From IMG/VR virus record IMGVR_UViG_2791355164_000001, positions 1 through 64,000 of that record: DNA of 64,000 nt; one strand, given 5' to 3'. Source of the stretch: a virus (taxonomy: Duplodnaviria > Caudoviricetes). Positions 863-62,198 of this stretch are shown one piece after another (positions within the stretch are counted from its first letter, which is position 1; every line of letters starts with the position of its first letter). Below the pieces are notes generated by a model, which ran no database searches, had not been told where the DNA came from, and saw only the letters and a list, made by a program, of their open reading frames with translations. Made by a program: the position numbers and the translations under genes.

Positions 863-1479
863 TACGCTGCCTCCTCCAGTTGGGCGATCTGCTCTTTAAG
901 CTGCCGCGTCAGTGCCTGCTCCTGATTTAGCTCAGTCTGCAGGCTGTCCGCACTTTTCTGCGCGTCGTCCGCGCTGCGCGTCAGCTGCTCCACCTTTGCT
1001 TTGGTTTCCGCTATGCCTGACTTATAGGCGTCACGCTGCTGGCGCACTTCGGCCAGCAGCTGCACCGAGGATTTCACGCCGCGTTTGGGCTGCGCCGTGT
1101 CATCGCTGGTGGCAGCAGCGCGCGCCATCCTGCGCGCCAGGGCTTTCTGAAAAGCCGTTGAGCCTTTGCTGAATAGCGTGGCCAGCTGGCGCCCGAGCTC
1201 AGGGATCGTGGTGACGTGGGTAAACGGCACGTTTTTCCCGTTCAGCTTCAGGCCGGAAATGTCGCCGCTGTCGTTGACCTGCACGGTCATAACCTGCTCG
1301 TCCATGCCAGTGAGGCTGAAAGTTTTGGTCGGTACGCCGTCTTTCCTGCGTGCGGTGCCGGCGGCGGTGACTTTGGCAATCTCATAGCCGCCGGTGGCGA
1401 TCGCCTTCTTCAGCTTCGCCAGGCCCTTATCGTTGAGTTCGTCAAAATTCAGCAGCACGTAACCTTTAGGATTCGACAC
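862..1479 (-). CDS. hdf: Hdf, DarA-related antirestriction/head protein
   Basis: 205 aa with C-terminal coiled coil; sits between lydB and darA as in P1. Confidence 0.75.
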   Translation of the reverse strand: MSNPKGYVLLNFDELNDKGLAKLKKAIATGGYEIAKVTAAGTARRKDGVPTKTFSLTGMDEQVMTVQVNDSGDISGLKLNGKNVPFTHVTTIPELGRQLATLFSKGSTAFQKALARRMARAAATSDDTAQPKRGVKSSVQLLAEVRQQRDAYKSGIAETKAKVEQLTRSADDAQKSADSLQTELNQEQALTRQLKEQIAQLEEAA

Positions 1480-1921
1480 TGAATACCCCCTGCTCTGACT
1501 TGCTCAGCTGGTACTTTCTGGAAATGGTGTCCTGCAGCGGGAAGATCCGGTAAAGCGGATTCAGGCGGCTGTTGCCGTGCGTCACGCGCACGGTAAGCAG
1601 CCATTCACCCGGTTCAAGGTAACGCGTGTCGATCAGCAGAAACTCCTCGCTCACGCCTTTGGGCGAGAGGTCGAGCGTGCGCTGCTTGCCGGAAATAACC
1701 ACCGTCGGATCGTTGCTGTCGCGCAGCCAGTACTCAATTTTTGCGCCCGCCAGCTTGCCGGCGCAGGCAATGTTAAGCCGGACCGGAAACGCCAGCGCGT
1801 TATCACGCGCAACGGCGGTACCGCACCCCAGCAACTCCACCTTTTTACGGGCAAATACGCAGCGATCCGTCACCATTGCTGCAGCCATCGCAGCAATAAA
1901 CAGGTTCTGATAATCAATCAT
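1466..1921 (-). CDS. lydB: LydB-like antiholin
   Basis: 151 aa overlapping the holin end; P1 synteny. Confidence 0.65.
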   Translation of the reverse strand: MIDYQNLFIAAMAAAMVTDRCVFARKKVELLGCGTAVARDNALAFPVRLNIACAGKLAGAKIEYWLRDSNDPTVVISGKQRTLDLSPKGVSEEFLLIDTRYLEPGEWLLTVRVTHGNSRLNPLYRIFPLQDTISRKYQLSKSEQGVFSVES

Positions 1922-2235
1922 TGGCCGGAGCCTCCTTTTGACCCAAGCACGCCGTTTATTGCCGCAATGAGTCGTTCTTTGAATACAGTTGAAAGTTCAC
2001 GCCAGTTGTTGCTCGCCACTAATACGGCGAGATAAATCACGATTTCATCCAGTCCCTGCTGCCGCGCAAAAAAGTAGGCCGTGAGGCCGGTAATTAGCGC
2101 CAGCACCAGCTCAGTGACAAAGTTGAATACGTTCGGTTTGATCCGGTATTCGCGCACTCCCAGCAGGAAAACGCCTGTGCCACTCAGCAGGGACAGGAGA
2201 AGCGAAACCGCGAGCATTTTTTCTACATCGGTCAC
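1918..2235 (-). CDS. lydA: LydA-like holin
   Basis: 105 aa with about 3 hydrophobic segments; first gene after a late-promoter motif. Confidence 0.75.
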   Translation of the reverse strand: MTDVEKMLAVSLLLSLLSGTGVFLLGVREYRIKPNVFNFVTELVLALITGLTAYFFARQQGLDEIVIYLAVLVASNNWRELSTVFKERLIAAINGVLGSKGGSGQ

Positions 2236-2271: not shown

Positions 2272-2292
2272 AGGGTAAGCAGTCTGTAATTT
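2272..2292 (-). promoter_or_regulatory. Late promoter motif (lysis/dar operon)
   Basis: Minus strand AAATTACAGACTGCTTACCCT; one of six copies, each ahead of a late operon. Confidence 0.7.
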
Positions 2293-2304
2293 AGAGAGGT
2301 AAAG

Positions 2305-20862: not shown

Positions 20863-20883
20863 AATTTAAGCGGTTTGTAATTT
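20863..20883 (-). promoter_or_regulatory. Late promoter motif (capsid/tail operon)
   Basis: Minus strand AAATTACAAACCGCTTAAATT. Confidence 0.7.
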
Positions 20884-20916
20884 GCGTAGATCGACATGCA
20901 AGAGAATTATTTAAAT

Positions 20917-25799: not shown

Positions 25800-25820
25800 A
25801 CCTTAACCAGTTTGTAATTT
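25800..25820 (-). promoter_or_regulatory. Late promoter motif (PAAR/spanin operon)
   Basis: Minus strand AAATTACAAACTGGTTAAGGT. Confidence 0.65.
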
Positions 25821-25964
25821 GTTGAGAGCACCCGGCGCTGATACTTTGGGTTACTTAATATCTAAATTTTTATAAAAAAATTATAGAAGTTTTTGACACT
25901 TTTCCCGTATAGTCTGGCCTGCGGGTAGGTAGTGCCTGCGCATAAGAAAAATAAGGATCATCAG

Positions 25965-30697: not shown

Positions 30698-30715
30698 TGC
30701 GGATATTAATCACAT

Positions 30716-30733
30716 TCTAAGGATTTTCTTAGA
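30716..30733. promoter_or_regulatory. Putative C1 operator upstream of rdgC-dmt
   Basis: TCTAAGGATTTTCTTAGA. Confidence 0.6.
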
Positions 30734-36221: not shown

Positions 36222-36242
36222 ACTTTAAGCGGTTTGTAATTT
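36222..36242 (-). promoter_or_regulatory. Late promoter motif (baseplate operon)
   Basis: Minus strand AAATTACAAACCGCTTAAAGT. Confidence 0.7.
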
Positions 36243-36268
36243 GTGATGTTAGGTGTCAAACATTTTTT

Positions 36269-41356: not shown

Positions 41357-41437
41357 AAGGTAATTCTTAATTTTTTAGACTTTGTTTAATTCTACCTGAA
41401 ATCGCCCACTGGTCAATTCCGTGTGCGTAATCTTATA

Positions 41438-41453
41438 CTGTATTTTTATACAG
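41438..41453. promoter_or_regulatory. LexA (SOS) box
   Basis: CTGTATTTTTATACAG directly upstream of umuD. Confidence 0.9.
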
Positions 41454-41469
41454 GCAAAAGGAGGTGGAT

Positions 41470-41913
41470 ATGATGCGATTAGAACTGATAGCCAAACCGG
41501 CACACACCGCGCCACGACAGGCGTATTTACAGTTTCTGGAGAAGGTGGCAGCAGGTTTTCCGTCGCCGGCAATAGGCTACGAAGATACGCCGCTAGATCT
41601 GAATGAGTACTGCGTGCGGGCTAAAACGGCGACCTATTTTGTCCGCTGCCAGGGTGAGTCGATGATTGATGCCGGTATTTTTGACGGCGATCTGCTGGTG
41701 GTGGACAAGTCGCGCACGGCAGCAGACGGACAGATTGTGATTGCCTCAGTGGACGGAGAATTTACGGTAAAAAAGCTGCAGCTGAAGCCGGAGCCGATGC
41801 TGCTGGCGATGAACCCGCGCTATAAGCCGATCCCGGTTGAGCCGGAGTCACTGGAAATATGGGGCGTGGTCACTTACGTGATCCACAGTACTGACAATGT
41901 TTCTTCACAGTGA
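41470..41913 (+). CDS. umuD: UmuD-like S24 peptidase
   Basis: AAGFPSPA, GESM and FTVKKL motifs. Confidence 0.93.
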   Translation: MMRLELIAKPAHTAPRQAYLQFLEKVAAGFPSPAIGYEDTPLDLNEYCVRAKTATYFVRCQGESMIDAGIFDGDLLVVDKSRTAADGQIVIASVDGEFTVKKLQLKPEPMLLAMNPRYKPIPVEPESLEIWGVVTYVIHSTDNVSSQ

Positions 41914-43162
41914 CGTTAACGCGTTCTACGTGTCCGCCGAGCTGGCATTCAGACCGGACCTGTACGGGCGCCCGGTGGTTGTGGCGACGAACAATGACGG
42001 GTGCATAGCCGCGCTGAACAAAGAGGCAAAAAACGCCGGACTGAAGCGGGGTGATCCGCTGTTTAAAATCCGCGACACAATCCGGCGCTATGGCGTGGTG
42101 GTATTCAGTAGCAACTACACGCTGTACGACGCATTCAGTAAGCGCTTCCATTCCATTGTGGGTGAGCATGTTCCTAACCTGGAAGCATACTCAATCGACG
42201 AGGTATTTGGCTCTCTGGATGGCATGTCAAAGCTGGTGGACTATCAGGCGTTTGGAGAGGAGATCCGCCGGACCGTCACCCAGCACACCACGATGAAGTG
42301 TGGCGTGGGGATAGCGGAAACCAAGACGCTCTGTAAGGTTGCCACGCACGCAGCAAAGACCTGGCCGAAAACAGGCGGCGTGGTAGTGCTGACCGACCCG
42401 GCGCGGCGTGACAAGCTGCTGTCGCTGCTGGACGTGTCCGAAACGTGGGGAGTAGGGAGCCGGATAGCCGCCAGGCTGCGCATGATGAACATCAAGACGA
42501 TGCTCGACCTTGCCCGCGCTGACACAACCACGATCCGCAAAACGTTTAATGTGATGCTGGAGCGCACGGTAAGAGAGCTGCGCGGCGAACGCTGCTTTGA
42601 GCTCGAGGAGAACCCGCCCACGAAACAGCAAATCGTGGTGAGCCGGTCCTTTGGCAAGCGCCTAACCAGCCTGGACGAAGTGAGCAACGCTGTTTGTTTC
42701 TTTGCCACCAGCGCCGGCGAAAAGCTGCGGCGTGAAAAGCAGTACTGCCGGAATATCACGGTATTCATCCAGACCAGTAAACACGATCCGAACTACCCGT
42801 ATTACTCGCGCGGCGCCAGCCATTCGTTTACCACGGCCACACAGGACACACGCGATCTGATTGATGCCGCCGTTCGCGGCCTGCGGGCTATCTGGCGCGA
42901 TGGCTACCAGTATGCAAAGGCAGGCGTGATGCTGGGAGAGTTCTGCGGCTCTGAGCAGCAGCTTAACCTGTTTGATGAAGCGCCGCCGCGCCCTGGCAGC
43001 GATAAGCTGATGGCTGTTATGGACAAACTGAACAGCTACCAGCGTGGCACGCTTTTTCTGGCAGGTCAGGGCGTGAATCCGGCCTACCAGATGAAGCGGG
43101 AAATGCTCTCACCGCGCTATCTCACGCGATGGGAAGAGTTACCGGTAGTAAAAATAAAATAG
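41897..43162 (+). CDS. umuC: UmuC-like Y-family polymerase
   Basis: DVNAFYVS, SSNY, YSIDE, SRSFG and LSPRY motifs. Confidence 0.95.
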   Translation: MFLHSDVNAFYVSAELAFRPDLYGRPVVVATNNDGCIAALNKEAKNAGLKRGDPLFKIRDTIRRYGVVVFSSNYTLYDAFSKRFHSIVGEHVPNLEAYSIDEVFGSLDGMSKLVDYQAFGEEIRRTVTQHTTMKCGVGIAETKTLCKVATHAAKTWPKTGGVVVLTDPARRDKLLSLLDVSETWGVGSRIAARLRMMNIKTMLDLARADTTTIRKTFNVMLERTVRELRGERCFELEENPPTKQQIVVSRSFGKRLTSLDEVSNAVCFFATSAGEKLRREKQYCRNITVFIQTSKHDPNYPYYSRGASHSFTTATQDTRDLIDAAVRGLRAIWRDGYQYAKAGVMLGEFCGSEQQLNLFDEAPPRPGSDKLMAVMDKLNSYQRGTLFLAGQGVNPAYQMKREMLSPRYLTRWEELPVVKIK

Positions 43163-43349
43163 GGTGATTTAAACCCTGGAATTACAATAATTTAGGTTAA
43201 AAATAATCAGCCACTATGTTACCCCGTATTTATTCATTGCAGCAGCCGATCAAATGTTGATCACCCTTTAGGATGTGCATACAATCAGAAAAAACTGAAA
43301 GTGCATATTTTATTAGCGCACTCAATTAACAACCGGGATTTATAGGGAT

Positions 43350-43487
43350 ATGGCTGATATTTTATACATGGCAATGATGCTTTTCTTCGCTGTTTTTTCG
43401 CTTGTCGGTTTGTTTATTTCGCTCCGTTTGCCTGCAATGTTGCGTGCTTTTGATGCTGAAATGATCAAAAGCAAGCTTTCTCACTGA
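43350..43487 (+). CDS. Unlisted 45-aa single-TM protein
   Basis: MADILYMAMMLFFAVFSLVGLFISLRLP...; SD AGGGA; hairpin downstream. Confidence 0.5.
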   Translation: MADILYMAMMLFFAVFSLVGLFISLRLPAMLRAFDAEMIKSKLSH

Positions 43488-43571
43488 CTCCATCCTGCGA
43501 AACTCACCAGCCAGCCGCCATCATGCGGCGCTGGTGGGACTTGTGCAAAGCACCCCATTGGTTAATGAAAA

Positions 43572-43589
43572 ATTTAAACTTTCCTTAGA
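43572..43589 (-). promoter_or_regulatory. Putative C1 operator
   Basis: Reverse complement is TCTAAGGAAAGTTTAAAT; lies ahead of a cluster of small ORFs. Confidence 0.5.
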
Positions 43590-43633
43590 ATATTATATCA
43601 TTTAGTCCGAAATTAACCATTGGACTAAATGAT

Positions 43634-43819
43634 ATGACCAGTGCCACTAAACCCCCTGTTTTGTCACAGCCGGCGCTTATCGGCGCGATCCTGTCCGAAA
43701 TTGGCAATCAGCAACCGGGTGCCACCATCAGCGCCGCACAGTTCAAAGCGATCGCTAAAGCCGCTAACAAAGTTATTGACGCTTTCAAACCTCAAGTGAA
43801 CGAACAGGCTGATGAATAA
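43634..43819 (+). CDS. Hypothetical protein
   Basis: 61 aa ORF. Confidence 0.5.
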   Translation: MTSATKPPVLSQPALIGAILSEIGNQQPGATISAAQFKAIAKAANKVIDAFKPQVNEQADE

Positions 43820-43865
43820 TGATCATAGCGCTGGTGTCCGATTTAAGCGCATGGAGGGTATGTAG

Positions 43866-44132
43866 ATGCCGGTAAGCAGAGCACAGCTATTTACTCTGCG
43901 CAGAATGCGCAACGGAACCCGCTACATGATGCGGGGCGACAAGGGCTATGGCATTGAAGTTCGCTATGACGTTGCGACCGGGAACCGTGATGATGTTAAT
44001 TGCCGCAGTCTCGCACCGCTGATGCGCAGCGGGCTTATCCGCTTCAAGACCAAACCCACAGACATGACACGCTACTACGAAGTGGAGCTAACTCCACAGG
44101 GTATTACAGCAGCGAAAGGGAATATTCAATGA
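43866..44132 (+). CDS. Hypothetical protein (winged-helix-like)
   Basis: 88 aa, SD GGAGG; ends with ELTPQG. Confidence 0.55.
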   Translation: MPVSRAQLFTLRRMRNGTRYMMRGDKGYGIEVRYDVATGNRDDVNCRSLAPLMRSGLIRFKTKPTDMTRYYEVELTPQGITAAKGNIQ

Positions 44133-44455
44133 GCCAGGGAGTAAAACATTATCCGATGCCGGTTGTGCCGGCTGAGCTGGTGGAGCCGCTGATCCGCTTT
44201 CTGTCCGACCGTGAGGAGCGTATTGAGTTTCCACCTCATATGTTTTCAATGCTTAAAACTCTGGGGGAGGAGATCGCGCTGGCCGCACTGACTGCAAAGC
44301 CACTGGCAGCTACTGAAAAACATGAAATAAGCAACATGCATGCGACAGGGCTTTACCTTAGAGCATGGCCTCTATGCAGACGCCTCAACCAGCAGGAGGG
44401 CTATAACGTAAACCTGTATACCGCTCCACCAGCGCTAGTGAGTAACGGGCAATGA
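44129..44455 (+). CDS. Hypothetical protein
   Basis: ATGA-coupled to the previous ORF. Confidence 0.55.
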   Translation: MSQGVKHYPMPVVPAELVEPLIRFLSDREERIEFPPHMFSMLKTLGEEIALAALTAKPLAATEKHEISNMHATGLYLRAWPLCRRLNQQEGYNVNLYTAPPALVSNGQ

Positions 44456-44550
44456 ACCTGCGTAAATTCTTCCGCCTGAAAGCGCCCTGCGCGAATTGCC
44501 CGTTTTAAAAAGCCGGTGGTATAGAGCTGAATCATGGGCGTAAAATGAAG
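44452..44550 (+). pseudogene. Truncated ORF at the edge of the colicin cassette
   Basis: ATGA-coupled MNLRKFFRLKAPCANCPF*KAGGIEL..., interrupted by a stop and then by AT-rich DNA. Confidence 0.45.
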
Positions 44551-44638
44551 ATGAACCATTTACACGCATGTGCTACATAGTCTGCAGGTGTTTGTTGTAA
44601 ATGGTATTTAATGGAAAAAATAAAGCTGAGAAAAAGGA

Positions 44639-45175
44639 GTGTTGATGGAAAGTTTTAAAGACATGCATTCTTCTAAAGGTGAAGAGAAAAAGATTATCCT
44701 TTCTTTGATTCTGGCACTGATGCCGCTCATGGTTTTTTTACTGTGCCAGCTGCTTAATAATGACTCACTATTATTGCATTTTATCTATGACAAAACAGCA
44801 AACTTACCGGCTGTCATTTCTTCAAAAAGCATCCTGCTAAGTAAGTCGATGGATGTTTATTGTAAAACTGCGCCATTTTTGGCGGTGATTGTATTTGTTT
44901 TATTTTTAAATCCAAGAAGTTTGATTCGCAAGGTAGATCCAAAGCAACTGGTGAAAGGATTTATTTCCTGCTGTATTCTCCTGTCTTGTGCATTTTACTT
45001 TTTTATGTTCTCCAGTTTTGATTTGTATCAGTCAAAAAGGTTTTTAAGGCTTTTTTCTTACAATGATTATTCACTGACCATTTTTTATGTCAGCCTGTAT
45101 GCGATTTTCTATATGTTTACACTGGCTCTTTTGTTCTTTGTAGTAAGGATTGCTGAAATGATAAAGGAGAGGTAA
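44639..45175 (+). CDS. Colicin A-type immunity protein
   Basis: 178 aa with about 4 TM segments, YCKTAP motif; convergent with the pore-forming toxin. Confidence 0.85.
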   Translation: MLMESFKDMHSSKGEEKKIILSLILALMPLMVFLLCQLLNNDSLLLHFIYDKTANLPAVISSKSILLSKSMDVYCKTAPFLAVIVFVLFLNPRSLIRKVDPKQLVKGFISCCILLSCAFYFFMFSSFDLYQSKRFLRLFSYNDYSLTIFYVSLYAIFYMFTLALLFFVVRIAEMIKER

Positions 45176-45190
45176 ATATCACCTCTCCTT
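45162..45190. terminator. Bidirectional terminator between immunity and toxin genes
   Basis: AAAGGAGAGGT...ACCTCTCCTTT. Confidence 0.75.
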
Positions 45191-45200
45191 TTATTTTTAC

Positions 45201-46550
45201 TTATTGCGCCCGAGAGATAAGGTAGCTGTTGAAAGCAGCAGTTGCCTTATCGTCAATAAGTGAACTCAGGTAGGCAATCAGCATTAGACCGGCAACTGTC
45301 AGTACAGTTGCCGTCACAGGAAGAGAAAGGGTAAAAGTGGCAACGATGGCCGAAAATAAACTTAGCGCAACACTGCCAGCTATACCGGCCAGCACCCAGG
45401 ATTCCACTTCAAGCATTAATGGTCCCCAGTTGCCGGTTCGATAACCCTCCATGCTCTTTTCAGCCACTTTCTGCACTTTTTGAGCCAAGTCGCCAACCTT
45501 GAATGCTTTTGCAAGACGACCCATTTTTTTTGCCATATCTGCAGCGTTGACATGCTGCCAAGCATTCGCCAGAACCTGCGTATCTGCTGCATTAAATCGC
45601 ATTGCCGGGTTAGCTCTGAGCTGATTAAGTGCATTCATAGCCTGAGCATATCCGCGTATGTTCTTGCCCTGAAAATTACGCACATTGGAGGCAATGCTAG
45701 CCGCTACCTGTTTGTACTTATCTCCGGCATAACTACTCACCTTTTCACCAACATCAGTGATAAGACCTGCAGCGCTGTTGATCGCTTCAGTGGTTTGTGC
45801 GGCTTTGTTTTGTGTAATTGCTTTATCCAGATCTGCCAAAACCTCACCGCGCACTTTGTTCAGTTTGTACCTGACTGGATTGTTTACCTGTACAGTATGG
45901 CTGTTGCCGTTCCTGCCGCCGCTATCACGAGTCTCTGTAACTTTTTCTGGCTGAACGTTGTATGCAGTCTGCCATGCCTCGGCAATTTGCGTGCGTGCAG
46001 CAGGCTGCTCACTGAAAGCCAAAGCATCAAAAGAGGCACGGAGTTGTTTGTAAGAATTAATTTGAGTTGAGGGGGTAACCTTTTGGTTAGGCATTTCGTA
46101 ATCAGGCACATTTTTGAGAGTGTCTGCAATGGCTGTATTGATCAATGCTTCATCTAATCGGCCTTTACTGGACCAGCTTCCACCTGCCAGATAATTTTCA
46201 ACAACCGTCTGCGCTAATGGTTTACCTCCTGCCGCTTGGTTAGGAGCAGGGGTACGACGGGCAAGTTCATTTAGGACGCGCGTATAATGAAAGCCGTCGC
46301 CTGGAACTTTAACCATTGAAGAGTTTGTTGCGGTCATTCTTATGCCATTCATCATGGCATAACCATCAGTGATAGTGATACGGCCCCACGGGGTCATATA
46401 GGATGTGCCGGCTTTAACTGATGTTATTTTATCTCCAATACTGACACCGCCGTTTACACCGTCACCAGCATTGCTGTGCGTTTCTCCGTGGCCGGGTAAC
46501 GGGCCGCGCTCAGAACTCCATGGTGTACCATCACCGTATTTGTTGCTCAT
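45201..46550 (-). CDS. Pore-forming colicin A-like bacteriocin
   Basis: N-terminal DGTPWSSERG (TolB-box-like) and SYMTPWG...NSSMV...TRVLN; C-terminal channel domain GNWGPLMLEVESWVL plus hydrophobic hairpin. Confidence 0.92.
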   Translation of the reverse strand: MSNKYGDGTPWSSERGPLPGHGETHSNAGDGVNGGVSIGDKITSVKAGTSYMTPWGRITITDGYAMMNGIRMTATNSSMVKVPGDGFHYTRVLNELARRTPAPNQAAGGKPLAQTVVENYLAGGSWSSKGRLDEALINTAIADTLKNVPDYEMPNQKVTPSTQINSYKQLRASFDALAFSEQPAARTQIAEAWQTAYNVQPEKVTETRDSGGRNGNSHTVQVNNPVRYKLNKVRGEVLADLDKAITQNKAAQTTEAINSAAGLITDVGEKVSSYAGDKYKQVAASIASNVRNFQGKNIRGYAQAMNALNQLRANPAMRFNAADTQVLANAWQHVNAADMAKKMGRLAKAFKVGDLAQKVQKVAEKSMEGYRTGNWGPLMLEVESWVLAGIAGSVALSLFSAIVATFTLSLPVTATVLTVAGLMLIAYLSSLIDDKATAAFNSYLISRAQ

Positions 46551-47011
46551 TAAAACCCCTTTCTAAAATAAATTAAAAAATCCTAACGAGTGCAAATTTA
46601 TATTATCACTCCGTTTTAATTAAGTACAAATGGTTAAACGGACTTTTACCACTATTCTTAATAATTCGATGATTTATAAAATTTATCTTCTATACCAGTT
46701 TCCACTGGTTATTAAATTTTATTGGATGCTAATGTTCCTATATGAGCTTTTTTGTATTGTTGGTGTGTTTTTTGGTTGTTATTGGAAATAACGGTTAACT
46801 TATTTTTATATTGCTATATAACCAACGGTTGTGGCTGGTTAGGCAAAGAGTTGCCTGCCTTTGATTTTTAGCTGGCAAAGATCACTACAAGCATTGCTAA
46901 GCAGCGGCTGCTGTCAGGCCAGCCGCACGGGTTTTCATGCGAGCGCGATGTTCAATGGGGGGAAGCCTGTTCTTATTTTTTTAGGGTTGCAATGCTATTT
47001 GGTTCTGATGA

Positions 47012-47563
47012 TCAGGCGCTGCGGCGGCGTTCTATCAGCATATGCGCCATAGATTCCACTTCCTCAAAATCCCTTGAGGCTGCGGTTCTCAGTATCAGAT
47101 TCCATTTGCTGAGTGTGCGCGCATTTTTAGCCAGATCACTTCCTGCTTTCACACGTCCGCTTTCTTCCAGCCAGGCGGCTACTTCTGACCAGTCCCAAAG
47201 GGGAGACTGACCCTTTATGCGCTGGACAGGGCAGGGGAAATTGCCGTTGCCGCGCGTGCCGTCTTTGAGCATGGCGATTGCCTGGCGTGACATTTCGGTG
47301 TTCTCTGCAATGTCGCTCAGTCCCACCAGCGCCGAATCGACAGACGCCACTACAGCGCCGATTCCGGCTGATTCAACGTTTTCAACCGCTGACATAATGG
47401 CTTCATGCAGGGATTCTGCTTCGCGGTCAAACTCCAGATAAACGGCGTGGCCATATGCGCAAATCAGCGCATCATCACAGCCGCTTTCAAACAGCGCATC
47501 TTCCAGTCCTTCGGTCTCATACGTTACGCCTGAGAGTGTCAGAGTGAAGTTATAAAGCGCCAT
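47012..47563 (-). CDS. HicB-like antitoxin with C-terminal HTH
   Basis: LFESGCDDA...FDREA; LVGLSDIAE...SRQAI...FPCP. Confidence 0.65.
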   Translation of the reverse strand: MALYNFTLTLSGVTYETEGLEDALFESGCDDALICAYGHAVYLEFDREAESLHEAIMSAVENVESAGIGAVVASVDSALVGLSDIAENTEMSRQAIAMLKDGTRGNGNFPCPVQRIKGQSPLWDWSEVAAWLEESGRVKAGSDLAKNARTLSKWNLILRTAASRDFEEVESMAHMLIERRRSA

Positions 47564-47633
47564 AGTACCTCTTCTTTTTCGTGGGTGTGTAACTCGGTAA
47601 AGAGCGGCGTTAACCACTCTTTACCGGGCAAAA

Positions 47634-47858
47634 TCATGTGCAGTGATCGACCTTGCGCCTGATTTGCTTCGCGTGGTTCTCCGGGCTTCGCGGAGTAGAC
47701 CACACACTCATTTGATGATCTCGGTGTTCATCTTCTGGATTACCGCAGCGCAGCTTGCAAAAGCAGTGAGCTGAATCGCCCGGTGGAACCCAAACCCAGC
47801 CTTTCGTTAACGCATAATCAATGGCTGCTTGAATATGCTTGTTCGGATGTTTCTTCAT
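47634..47858 (-). CDS. HicA-like toxin
   Basis: 74 aa; GW....G.SAH...SVWSTP. Confidence 0.6.
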   Translation of the reverse strand: MKKHPNKHIQAAIDYALTKGWVWVPPGDSAHCFCKLRCGNPEDEHRDHQMSVWSTPRSPENHAKQIRRKVDHCT

Positions 47859-50319: not shown

Positions 50320-51396
50320 ATGACACAACAGCTCAAATCTATTCAGGCGCTGCGCGGGCTTGCCTGCCTTGCCGTCGTAACTTTTCATTTTCGCTATCAG
50401 ATCAAAACGCAATATCCGGCGTTAACCAAAGTGCTTTCAACCGGCGCTATTGGCGTGGATCTGTTTTTCATCCTCAGTGGCTTTGTTATTACGCTCTCCG
50501 TGTCGCGCATGGGTACAGGGTTCGCGGCAGCGGGTGACTTCCTGAAACGCCGTGCGCTGCGCCTGCTGCCCGCCTATTTCATTCTGCTGCTGATCAACTT
50601 CCTGTTAAGCGGGGCTATGGCGACGTTCCACTATGCGGATAAGACTCAGGCGCTGATTAGTGCGGCAACGCTCTCCGTCTACCTGCCGCAGCACGCGCCG
50701 TTTTACGTGGACGACGGCGGGTTTATGAACGTGCGCTGGACGCTCAACTATGAGTTTCTGTTTTACCTGATGATGGCCGTATGCCTGCTGGTGCGCGCAC
50801 GCTGGGTGGCGCTGGCCGCAATGCTGGGCGCGGCGCTGGTGGCGGCACCAATGGCAGCAGGCCACCAGCCGACGCTGCTGGTGCATGGCTACGATATGGG
50901 TTACGCCTACCTGAACCTGATGACCAATCCGATTATCTGGCAGTTTGCCGCGGGCGTGCTGATTGGCCTGGTTTACCCGTACATGGCGCGCCTGCCGGTG
51001 GCAACCCGTGTGCCGTTCCTGCTGGCAGCGGTTGCCCTGTTTGTGCAGCACATTATCAGCCACCAGCATATCGGGCATGGTCTGATGGCGTCTGGTACCG
51101 TGCTGGCGCTGCTGCTGGCCGCTGTGGCGTTCAATGACAGCTGGTTAGGACGCATCACGCCGCGCTGGCTGGTATTCCTGGGGGATATCTCTTTCTCCGT
51201 ATACCTGATCCATATCGTGACCAAAGATCGGTTATCAAAATCCTTCACGGATCAGGGTATGACGTTCTTCGTGTGCAACGTCCTGCTGGCACTGCTGGTG
51301 GGCTGGCTCAGCTACCGCTACATTGAGCCAATTGGCCAGAAGATAGCGCGCCGGCGCAGAGAGAAAGCGCTCCGTACCGTAAGCGATGCCGCATAA
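50320..51396 (+). CDS. Acyltransferase-3 family (OafA/ExoZ-like) O-acyltransferase
   Basis: IQALRGLA, GVDLFFILSGF, RR..RL.P, WTLNYE and SFSVYLIH motifs. Confidence 0.9.
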   Translation: MTQQLKSIQALRGLACLAVVTFHFRYQIKTQYPALTKVLSTGAIGVDLFFILSGFVITLSVSRMGTGFAAAGDFLKRRALRLLPAYFILLLINFLLSGAMATFHYADKTQALISAATLSVYLPQHAPFYVDDGGFMNVRWTLNYEFLFYLMMAVCLLVRARWVALAAMLGAALVAAPMAAGHQPTLLVHGYDMGYAYLNLMTNPIIWQFAAGVLIGLVYPYMARLPVATRVPFLLAAVALFVQHIISHQHIGHGLMASGTVLALLLAAVAFNDSWLGRITPRWLVFLGDISFSVYLIHIVTKDRLSKSFTDQGMTFFVCNVLLALLVGWLSYRYIEPIGQKIARRRREKALRTVSDAA

Positions 51397-53051: not shown

Positions 53052-53469
53052 AATTTATACCTCCGTATAGACACTGAGTGTATATCGACCCAAAACCATT
53101 TGCATTAAATTAGACAATAGAATTTACAGCTAGCAGCGCATTTCCTACTTGTCGAAGCAGGTACGCGCACCATAATGGCCTGATGATGCTCTCACAGTGG
53201 CTGGTGGACGCAGAGAAAGAGCGTGACACGCTGTGGGCGGAAGATCACCGCCTGCGGTCAGGCGGCAACGTTCACTGTAATCAGTGCATAAGCTGTAGTG
53301 AGTGAGTTAGAGCCAATAAAAAAGCCCCTTAACGGGGCTTTTGAGTAAGAGCTAATGGCAACGGGTAAGAAATTTGCCTTGTAAAATTAGCAAATCCTTA
53401 GAATTTAGAAAGATATTTAAACCCAGCACCGCACCACCTGGCGCATAGCCTGACAGGCGTTACCGGGGC

Positions 53470-57651: not shown

Positions 57652-57931
57652 CCATTCCGGCCAAAATCGCGCAATGTCTGGTCTGAGGGTAAACTAAATC
57701 GAAAATTTTTAGAAAAGCATGCGTTTTCTTCGTGATCGGCTGCATGCCTTCATATATGATCATTTGGCATTCAATTTTGATTGCGGCTGGTAACTGTTAT
57801 CATCTGAAACCTTTGGGCGTTACATCGCGGGCGATGTAGCAGTACCGGCACGAAACCCGAGCTTATTAAATGACGTGTACAGCAGATATATCCGACAGTT
57901 AAGGATTACGGACTATTCTTATTATTGCCAT

Positions 57932-57949
57932 TCTAAGGATTTGCAATTT
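57932..57949 (+). promoter_or_regulatory. Putative C1 operator at the c1 promoter
   Basis: TCTAAGGATTTGCAATTT. Confidence 0.55.
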
Positions 57950-62025: not shown

Positions 62026-62046
62026 ATGGTAAGGAGTCTGTAATTT
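62026..62046 (-). promoter_or_regulatory. Late promoter motif (pacAB)
   Basis: Minus strand AAATTACAGACTCCTTACCAT. Confidence 0.7.
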
Positions 62047-62198
62047 GCAGTGATCACAATAATGATCACTTAGTCAGCAAACAGTTTTGGTTGTGCCTTT
62101 TTTCGAGCACAAGCGCGCTTTTTTAAGTGTACAAGTGTGCTCTGTGTGATAAATTCAGTCCCGGACTTTCAATATGAAATTAACCATTGGACAAATAA

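Follow-up and report, generated by a model that had tools for sequence, protein, structure and literature searches.

How could a colicin-type toxin be made, leave its producer and enter a competitor when its gene is accompanied by neither a lysis gene nor a LexA box? Group A colicin operons are normally controlled by LexA and carry a lysis gene, and an initial annotation of 64,000 nucleotides (nt) of viral DNA (Duplodnaviria; Caudoviricetes; positions 1 to 64,000 of IMG/VR record IMGVR_UViG_2791355164_000001; this whole stretch is called the window below) pointed to a colicin A-like toxin-immunity cassette on a P1-like phage-plasmid that departs from this pattern. Computational analysis of the cassette, its carrier and its relatives leads us to favor, with a probability of roughly 0.6, a reading in which a P1-like phage-plasmid carries the cassette as an intact accessory bacteriocin module, with uptake through the Tol system, LexA-independent expression and release by phage lysis.

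A colicin A-like toxin and a convergent immunity gene

The cassette holds two full-length genes that face each other across a short intergenic hairpin (aa, amino acids; ORF, open reading frame).

44532-46919, no strand assigned: AT-rich toxin-immunity cassette, ~2.39 kb, delimited by synteny breaks, GC content and absence from related Pantoea P1-like plasmids
45201-46550, minus strand: 449-aa colicin A-like pore-forming bacteriocin, an uninterrupted ORF (Pfam, PDB sequence matches, AlphaFold, Foldseek)
Toxin aa 1-43, minus strand: disordered, Gly/Ser/Asn-rich N-terminus with DGTPWSSERG at aa 7-16 (AlphaFold model)
Toxin aa 50-93, minus strand: ColA-like beta region (AlphaFold model)
45801-46238, minus strand: central domain, aa 105-250 (~111-248 in the layout of the whole toxin); the AlphaFold model has four helices, a beta hairpin and then a long helix that continues into the pore domain; presumed uptake/receptor module
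Toxin aa 249-449, minus strand: pore domain with a hydrophobic hairpin at aa ~384-434 (PF01024, 1col_A, hydropathy scan)
44645-45175, plus strand: 176-aa colicin immunity protein of the Cai family, convergent with the toxin gene (PF03857, hydropathy scan)
45163-45191, no strand assigned: terminator-like hairpin with a perfect 11-bp stem and a 7-nt loop, between the stop codons of the convergent genes

The two ends of the toxin had been described as a ColA-like N-terminus and a ColA-type pore domain, and both assignments are borne out. Pfam places PF01024 at aa 253-424 (E = 1.6e-9) and ColA_N, PF22348, at aa 52-81 (E = 3.5e-7). Among PDB sequences, the best match to aa 249-446 is the pore domain of colicin A, 1col_A (E = 1.1e-66), followed by colicins S4, N and B, and two N-terminal fragments of colicin A, 3iax_B and 3qdr_B, match aa 5-98 (E = 1.2e-14) and aa 46-99 (E = 1.4e-7), respectively. 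The N-terminus is 44% identical to caa over aa 6-132. An AlphaFold model of the whole toxin has a mean predicted local distance difference test score (pLDDT) of 72; it falls below 50 over aa 1-6 and 8-43, as expected of a disordered translocation arm. Foldseek aligns the model with 1col_A at a template modeling (TM) score of 0.93 (root-mean-square deviation 1.7, 54% identity) and with 3qdr_B at 0.82, both normalized to the target. By sequence and predicted structure, the toxin is a colicin-like pore former of the colicin A subfamily and is probably Tol-dependent, i.e., group A-like.

The convergent gene, annotated as encoding an immunity protein with four transmembrane segments, matches PF03857 (E = 1.1e-26), and a hydropathy scan finds four hydrophobic segments in its product. 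Its ORF extends over 44639-45175 on the plus strand, the likely true start being the ATG at 44645 behind AAGGAG, and it lies 25 nt from the toxin stop codon in the opposite orientation. Six homologs of the immunity protein were found, the closest 81% identical. The protein would be expected to protect carriers of the element.

The carrier is a P1-like phage-plasmid

The whole record (G000) comprises 90,241 bp, of which the window is the first 64 kb, and its 127-bp terminal repeat identifies it as a complete circle. We called 118 ORFs with a simple greedy script and compared them with PHROGs. Matches include PmgB/C/G/S-like head proteins, tail sheath, tube and baseplate proteins, and an Lpa-like late activator; DarB-like, Ulx, DdrA, Hdf and Ref proteins, terminase subunits and an integrase-family recombinase; and a partition protein, a replication-initiator-like protein and an endolysin. 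No protelomerase is named among these matches, although no search was aimed at one, and Phd and Doc/Fic have no match in the whole record. At the DNA level the element is closest to Pantoea plasmids of 87-95 kb whose annotations include tail and maturation-control genes; one of them, pPSP-26e, is ~95% identical across the shared parts. Because the PHROGs matches comprise P1 hallmarks and the nearest DNA relatives are Pantoea plasmids, the element is a P1-like phage-plasmid, as had been annotated, and its hosts are Pantoea-type Enterobacterales.

Cassette borders and cargo site

Synteny with two related complete plasmids, pPSP-26e (L001) and pPA-MXU-90 (L008), ends at 44531 and restarts at 46920-47049. 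The anatomy of the cassette as annotated stands, but its right end, previously set at 46860, has to be moved to ~46919-46921 on the evidence of synteny and of two allelic contigs described below. The cassette is AT-rich, as reported: its GC content is 0.418, compared with 0.538 for the element and 0.52-0.53 for the flanks, and drops to 0.343 in the immunity gene and 0.322 in the region upstream of the toxin. Neither related plasmid contains a colicin pore domain (PF01024, 0 of 2), and a repeat scan found no convincing direct or inverted repeats flanking the cassette. The left break falls within a homolog of PSNIH1_19250, whose translation is 118 aa long, and here too the annotation was right in describing an upstream phage ORF as cut off.

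44452-44531, plus strand: phage-plasmid gene remnant, homolog of PSNIH1_19250, with 27 codons left and a stop at codon 19

A megablast search with 44000-47100 returned no phage record, its sole matches being the flanks in the two plasmids. Contigs from a separate study (X2) span both cassette junctions with 1-3 differences. A metagenome scan with the single immunity protein retrieved 0 loci, and a later scan with a profile retrieved 8. Two metagenomic contigs, L023 (17.5 kb) and L024 (3.7 kb), carry an allelic cassette at the same place, with a toxin 86.6% identical and an immunity protein 81% identical to those of the window; the P1-like backbone of L023 is 89-98% identical to that of this element. 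Their cassette covers window positions 44543-46402 and rejoins the window at the right junction, 46920-46922. Since the cassette is absent from the Pantoea plasmids and allelic in L023 and L024, comparison of these sequences identifies the locus as a variable cargo site in this lineage.

The left flank of L023 is the end of umuC, and window positions 43159-44542 are missing there. In both contigs the cassette follows directly after umuC (L023 9866-9945; window 43140-43162 and 44490-44510). The umuC 3' end GAGTTGCCCGTTGTAAAAA in L023 resembles GAATTGCCCGTTTTAAAAA at window positions 44492-44510, and the shorter arrangement could stem from a deletion between such short similar sequences.

The same region differs in other ways from pPSP-26e. 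Just upstream of the cassette, the window is without a 291-aa phosphoadenosine phosphosulfate (PAPS)-reductase-domain gene (window 44129-44135, compared with L001 6137-7043), a second indel in the same variable region. At the place of the cassette itself, pPSP-26e carries VapB-like and PrlF-like antitoxin-type genes. Replacement of a toxin-antitoxin module by the cassette was considered; the pPSP-26e stretch holds orphan antitoxin-like ORFs only, and we keep this idea solely as part of a weak rival explanation taken up below.

A putative shuffled module in the central domain

The central region had been left unrecognized in the initial annotation, and the homology and structure checks proposed for it agree with that verdict. 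Folded alone by AlphaFold, the domain reaches a pLDDT of 81.7 and a predicted TM score (pTM) of 0.75. It belongs to no Pfam family, and Foldseek yields 0 matches in the PDB at E <= 0.001 (best E = 0.34). The best hit of a wide VIA-align search, Z = 8.0 to stressosome and globin-like helical bundles, is in the noise range for helical models, and the ESM Atlas offers no usable feature match, its structure rows staying at TM <= 0.47. Exhaustive phmmer comparison with 1.84 billion cluster representatives returned 12 matches to the central domain at E <= 1e-3. The N-terminal and central regions together have 0 matches in 401 genomes sampled from a single order, an empty result that is uninformative.

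Among the relatives examined, the domains joined to this module vary. Some relatives have colicin A-type pore domains, P0055 and P0100 have pore domains ~24% identical to that of this toxin, and in P0101 the partner is a Pyocin_S plus DNase killing unit. An S-type pyocin-domain protein on a 9-kb Enterobacter plasmid is 35% identical over aa 126-250. The closest allele, P0001, is 99% identical to the toxin in the pore domain, 89% in the central domain and 62% in the N-terminus, and contigs of two runs part from the window exactly at 46216-46223, corresponding to ~aa 109. These comparisons suggest that the N-terminal module has been swapped in a close allele with a breakpoint at ~aa 109. Because the partners differ and the N-terminus is exchanged, a pattern of colicin uptake modules, the central domain reads as a rare shuffled module that a small family of bacteriocins shares with this toxin, and its position and shuffling underlie its presumed role as an uptake or receptor module. 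One further protein, P0106 (1699 aa, no Pfam family), resembles the central domain over five distinct segments and could be a large repeat protein made of copies of this module.

The domain is far from near-identity with a characterized colicin. Its first part is at most 23-27% identical to colicin Y-type proteins, with which it has the motifs SW.G.GP...L[IV]N.AI, YK.MR.AFD.LP..Q and AW..A in common; local E-values for this likeness are weak, at 1e-5 to 1e-8 in a 100-sequence set.

Lysis genes and the route of release

The reported absence of a lysis lipoprotein gene is upheld. The colicin lysis-protein family PF02402 has 0 matches in the 90-kb record at E <= 10, and inspection by eye of the 33 ORFs of at least 20 aa in 44500-47050 revealed none that is lipoprotein-like. 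The element does encode phage lysis functions.

1918-2235, minus strand: LydA-like holin (phrog_1527, E = 9.7e-35)
1466-1921, minus strand: LydB-like protein (phrog_1898, E = 9.3e-56)
84811-85419 of the full record (G000), outside the window, minus strand: endolysin (phrog_90, E = 4.1e-49)

Given this holin, LydB-like protein and endolysin, and the absence of any further lysis gene, release by phage lysis is a reasonable proposal, and an exit through the element's own holin and endolysin appears plausible from its gene content and is the most economical route.

We then asked how unusual a missing lysis gene is. Pore-domain matches occur in 19 genomes of a 401-genome sample from one enterobacterial family, and a rough script recovered a toxin ORF in 8 of the 12 returned loci, the other 4 being dropped because no ORF fitted the pattern. 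None of these 8 chromosomal or prophage colicin-like loci has a convincing lysis-lipoprotein ORF within 1.5 kb, so that the missing gene is not unusual outside Col plasmids. A LexA-like box lies within ~100 nt upstream in 4 of the same 8. The contrast that the annotation had drawn with group A operons holds for Col plasmids, but in this sample 0 of 8 loci have a convincing lysis lipoprotein and 4 of 8 lack a LexA-like box.

Upstream region and expression

Expression was examined in the DNA between the toxin start codon and the backbone genes behind it.

46551-46919, minus strand: toxin upstream region, GC 0.32, with a candidate extended -10 promoter and without a LexA box, late-promoter-like motif or C1-operator-like motif
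47012-47858, minus strand: backbone two-gene unit encoding a 74-aa protein, then a 201-aa DNA-binding protein (phrog_5923 and phrog_2620, 'excisionase and transcriptional regulator')

The stretch 46500-47060 contains no CTG-N10-CAG, as annotated for the upstream DNA, and its best 20-mer has 9 mismatches to the LexA consensus, compared with 4 for the umuD box at 41436. L023 and L024 likewise have no LexA box within ~250 nt of the toxin start codon. Ahead of the toxin gene, the window, L023 and L024 have mostly diverged in sequence, apart from a common block, TTGTnn, 15 nt, TGnTAnTAT, ~50 nt before the start codon. Reading by eye, we take this block as a candidate extended -10 promoter, represented in the window by TTGTAC, 15 nt and TGaTAATAT at ~46600-46631.

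Two candidate phage motifs were derived de novo from sequences over-represented upstream of genes in this genome. The first, CAAATTAC-N8-TAnnnT, is found ahead of the sheath, baseplate, pac and lyz late operons and, with one mismatch, of the holin gene; it is probably the Lpa-dependent late promoter of this phage. The second, AAATCCTTAGAAT, lies in intergenic regions, including those upstream of lpa and of a small-gene operon starting at 43634, and may be the C1-type repressor operator of this lineage.

20863-20884, 25800-25821 and 36222-36243: CAAATTAC-N8-TAnnnT sites
62026-62047, minus strand: CAAATTAC-N8-TAnnnT site
~85356, minus strand, and 82497, plus strand (full record): CAAATTAC-N8-TAnnnT sites
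2272-2293, minus strand: CAAATTAC-N8-TAnnnT site with one mismatch
30714-30726, 53392-53404 and 57930-57942: exact AAATCCTTAGAAT sites
20915 and 43579 (window), 64337 and 79205 (full record): variant AAATCCTTAGAAT sites

The backbone two-gene unit lies upstream of the toxin gene and is co-oriented with it. A scan of 44300-47200 found no minus-strand terminator-like site, and the fold of 46840-47020 contains no hairpin plus U run (z = -0.49). Because no terminator-like site intervenes, read-through from 47858-47012 into the toxin gene is possible. The unit is ~81% identical at the DNA level to many ~110-kb Citrobacter, Enterobacter and Cronobacter plasmids and is apparently a module common to different plasmid groups.

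We considered whether a 53-aa hydrophobic ORF at 46630-46791 (plus strand) might encode an overlooked release factor. A 5.8-billion-protein index contains no homolog of it and Pfam no matching family, and it is probably a chance ORF in AT-rich DNA. This ORF is divergent from the toxin gene and is followed by a terminator-like hairpin at 46840-46857 on the plus strand.

Proposed mechanism and alternatives

Under the favored reading, the toxin gene would have its own sigma-70 promoter of the extended -10 type within the AT-rich DNA, perhaps supplemented by transcripts that read through from the backbone operon upstream, and in either case expression would be independent of LexA. A fraction of carriers would lyse through the holin, LydB and endolysin, letting toxin and virions out together, to the benefit of immune lysogens; since the element has no dedicated lysis protein, this is probably how the toxin escapes. 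At the target cell, the central domain would attach the toxin to a receptor on the cell surface, and the disordered N-terminus, with its TolB-box-like motif and colicin A-like TolA-binding beta region, would thread through an outer-membrane porin and reach the Tol system. Depolarization of the inner membrane by the colicin A-type C-terminal domain would follow, and the four-helix Cai-family immunity protein would shield carriers of the element from it.

Several observations weigh against parts of this mechanism. The TolB-box-like motif has Pro at the position of Gly in the colicin A-like relatives, and the receptor role of the central domain has no fold or family match behind it. The promoter scan tool called no minus-strand promoter upstream of the toxin. 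In the window as in L023 and L024, the toxin strand carries neither CAAATTAC-N8-TAnnnT nor AAATCCTTAGAAT ahead of the toxin gene; no recognizable cis element therefore ties toxin expression to the lytic cycle, and toxin accumulation need not coincide with lysis. Finally, the precedent of the telocins, bacteriocins of Klebsiella telomere phages, gives no support for lysis-dependent release in particular, as far as the excerpted text of that study goes (PMC12042878).

The strongest competing explanation, which we judge unlikely, is that the toxin is made in lysogens and exits without phage lysis, by leakage, in outer-membrane vesicles, or through lysis by other prophages or host autolysis, the phage-plasmid mattering for the spread of the cassette only. 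Such an exit would fit the missing late-promoter and C1-operator-like motifs, the conserved sigma-70-like candidate promoter and the rarity of nearby lysis genes at chromosomal colicin-like loci (0 convincing cases in 8), and the telocin TelA is described in the available excerpt as present in uninduced phage-carrying cells (PMC12042878). It has to contend with the nature of the toxin, a 449-aa cytoplasmic protein without a signal peptide or nearby secretion genes, for which no efficient exit but lysis is known, and with the complete lysis set that the element encodes. Colicin Ib, likewise without a lysis gene, has moreover been shown to leave the cell by prophage lysis, according to the portion of the report consulted (PMC7374059).

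An improbable second alternative assigns the cassette a main role in stabilizing the phage-plasmid: cells that lose the element would lose immunity and be killed by the toxin of their siblings, a population-level addiction rather than an attack on foreign competitors. The location of the cassette at the place of the VapB-like and PrlF-like genes of pPSP-26e, and the absence of Phd and Doc/Fic matches from G000, are in keeping with this idea, but the replaced genes are orphan antitoxin-like ORFs and not established complete toxin-antitoxin modules. Stabilization would, in addition, require released toxin and is compatible with competitor killing. That the cassette is silent or decaying cargo from an old recombination, without present function, is very improbable, for although its DNA is AT-rich and foreign (GC 0.32-0.42), of a kind often silenced, and has no recognized regulator site, neither ORF is truncated or lacks a hallmark of its family, other samples contain near-identical copies as well as an allele that is diverged but intact, and pore domains 99% identical between alleles whose N-termini are 62% identical suggest selection and not decay.

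The favored reading of an accessory module released by phage lysis can be extended into a bolder proposal, which we regard as doubtful in its full form. P1-like phage-plasmids of plant-associated Enterobacterales would wield a LexA-independent colicin-type weapon whose sole exit is their own LydA/Lyz lysis, each spontaneous induction releasing virions and toxin, and the central domain would confer a new outer-membrane receptor specificity for Pantoea/Erwinia-type cells. The element would then be a single-replicon version of the partnership between colicin Ib and prophages, and the P1-family counterpart of the telocins.

Other genes near the cassette

An error-prone polymerase pair, umuD/umuC (ImpA/ImpB-like), occupies 41464-43162, and a perfect LexA box, CTGTATTTTTATACAG, precedes it at 41436-41455. 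SOS-controlled cargo thus adjoins an SOS-independent toxin cassette on one element. An O-antigen acetyltransferase-like gene at 50320-51396 (plus strand; phrog_3333, E = 3.3e-82) is a possible lysogenic-conversion gene altering the host surface.

Significance

The cassette is a new example of phages arming their hosts with bacteriocins. With it, bacteriocin cargo would reach beyond N15-like telomere phages into the P1 family and into plant-associated hosts, which would support the general picture that temperate phages and phage-plasmids carry interbacterial weapons at variable loci. With toxin, immunity and lysis genes on one replicon, the element offers a compact system for testing phage lysis as a bacteriocin release step and for studying the costs and benefits of spontaneous induction. 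Current understanding is not overturned by the cassette; its most interesting item is the central domain, predicted to be a rare, confidently folded module, together with its receptor, whose identification would reveal a further way for colicin-like toxins to enter Pantoea or Erwinia, groups that include plant pathogens and biocontrol strains.

Comparison with known systems

The cassette resembles the colicin A operon (caa-cai-cal, on pColA) in its pore domain, in an N-terminus with TolB-box-like and TolA-binding regions, and in its convergent Cai-family immunity gene. The toxin is shorter, at 449 aa compared with ~592 aa for colicin A-like relatives (P0010). The central region of colicin A is a coiled-coil, BtuB-binding receptor domain; here, an unrelated 140-aa central domain takes the place of this long region, where the colicin A-like relatives are 24% identical. 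The cassette also differs from the colicin A operon in having no cal-type lysis gene and no LexA box, and its carrier is a 90-kb phage-plasmid rather than a 6.7-kb Col plasmid. Bacteriocin 28b of Serratia marcescens, a protein of ~447 aa, is not known to have its own lysis gene, and its release reportedly involves phage-like holin/lysozyme genes.

Colicins U and Y, like 28b, are Tol-dependent pore formers, and the central domain shows motif likeness at low identity to colicin Y-type proteins. Colicin Y proteins have ~600-630 aa and carry the similar region in their N-terminal part. No receptor assignment is transferable. A review table gives OmpA as the receptor of colicin U, together with OmpF and TolABQR, and OmpA, OmpF and lipopolysaccharide for 28b (PMC9558359). 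By analogy, the OmpA receptor of colicin U is a lead for the central domain, not an assignment.

Lambdoid prophages provide a different setting for related pore formers. Three loci (L005 7804-9502, L006 9530-11228 and L007 7521-9228) each encode a 370-373-aa pore former and, convergent with it, a 182-aa ORF where an immunity gene would be expected, placed between the replication genes and a Q-like gene, with a pore domain 50% identical to that of the toxin and no lysis-lipoprotein ORF near. Their phages have an integrase, CII, O/P-like replication genes and a Q-like antiterminator, and L006 has an Rz-like spanin. In contrast to the cassette described here, these cassettes have kept a LexA box, 67 nt upstream, which is perfect in L005 and in L009 (at the place of L007) and has one mismatch in L006, and their pore formers lack the colicin A-like N-terminus and the central domain, the match to our query starting at aa 234.

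Colicin Ib is LexA/Fur-controlled and Ton-dependent (group B). Its release in Salmonella, where it has no lysis gene of its own, is coupled to temperate-phage lysis according to the excerpted report (PMC7374059), the route proposed here for the window toxin. In that system a separate plasmid encodes the colicin and prophages supply lysis in trans, whereas here both functions are on one replicon.

Phage-plasmid-borne bacteriocins and prophage-mediated colicin release have thus already been published, as the excerpts of both papers attest (PMC12042878, PMC7374059). In the literature searched, within limited full-text coverage, we found no P1-like element with a colicin-type toxin, and a preprint on P1-like elements mentions bacteriocins for N15-like phages only. 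The telocins are bacteriocin:immunity cassettes on Klebsiella telomere (N15-like) phage-plasmids. In the parts of the study available (PMC12042878), TelA and TelE are pore formers with a four-helix inner-membrane immunity protein; TelA is produced in lysogens, kills competitors and confers a competitive advantage; and the cassette varies between otherwise similar phages, some of which are without it. All four matches of a tblastn search with our toxin against a phage collection are telomere phages (34-40% identity, in the pore region), and one such phage, 48ST307, carries a protelomerase. Both systems place a toxin and its cognate immunity gene at a variable phage-plasmid locus. The carrier described here is, however, circular and of the P1-like myovirus type, not a linear N15-like telomere phage, and its host group is Pantoea-like rather than Klebsiella. 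Klebicin E, 97% identical to TelA, uses OmpC and the Ton system, as judged from a title cited in the same excerpt (PMC12042878), whereas the window toxin has a colicin A-like, Tol-type N-terminus. Because telocins are defined by their authors, in the excerpted text, as encoded by telomere phages (PMC12042878), the window toxin is a telocin analogue and not a telocin.

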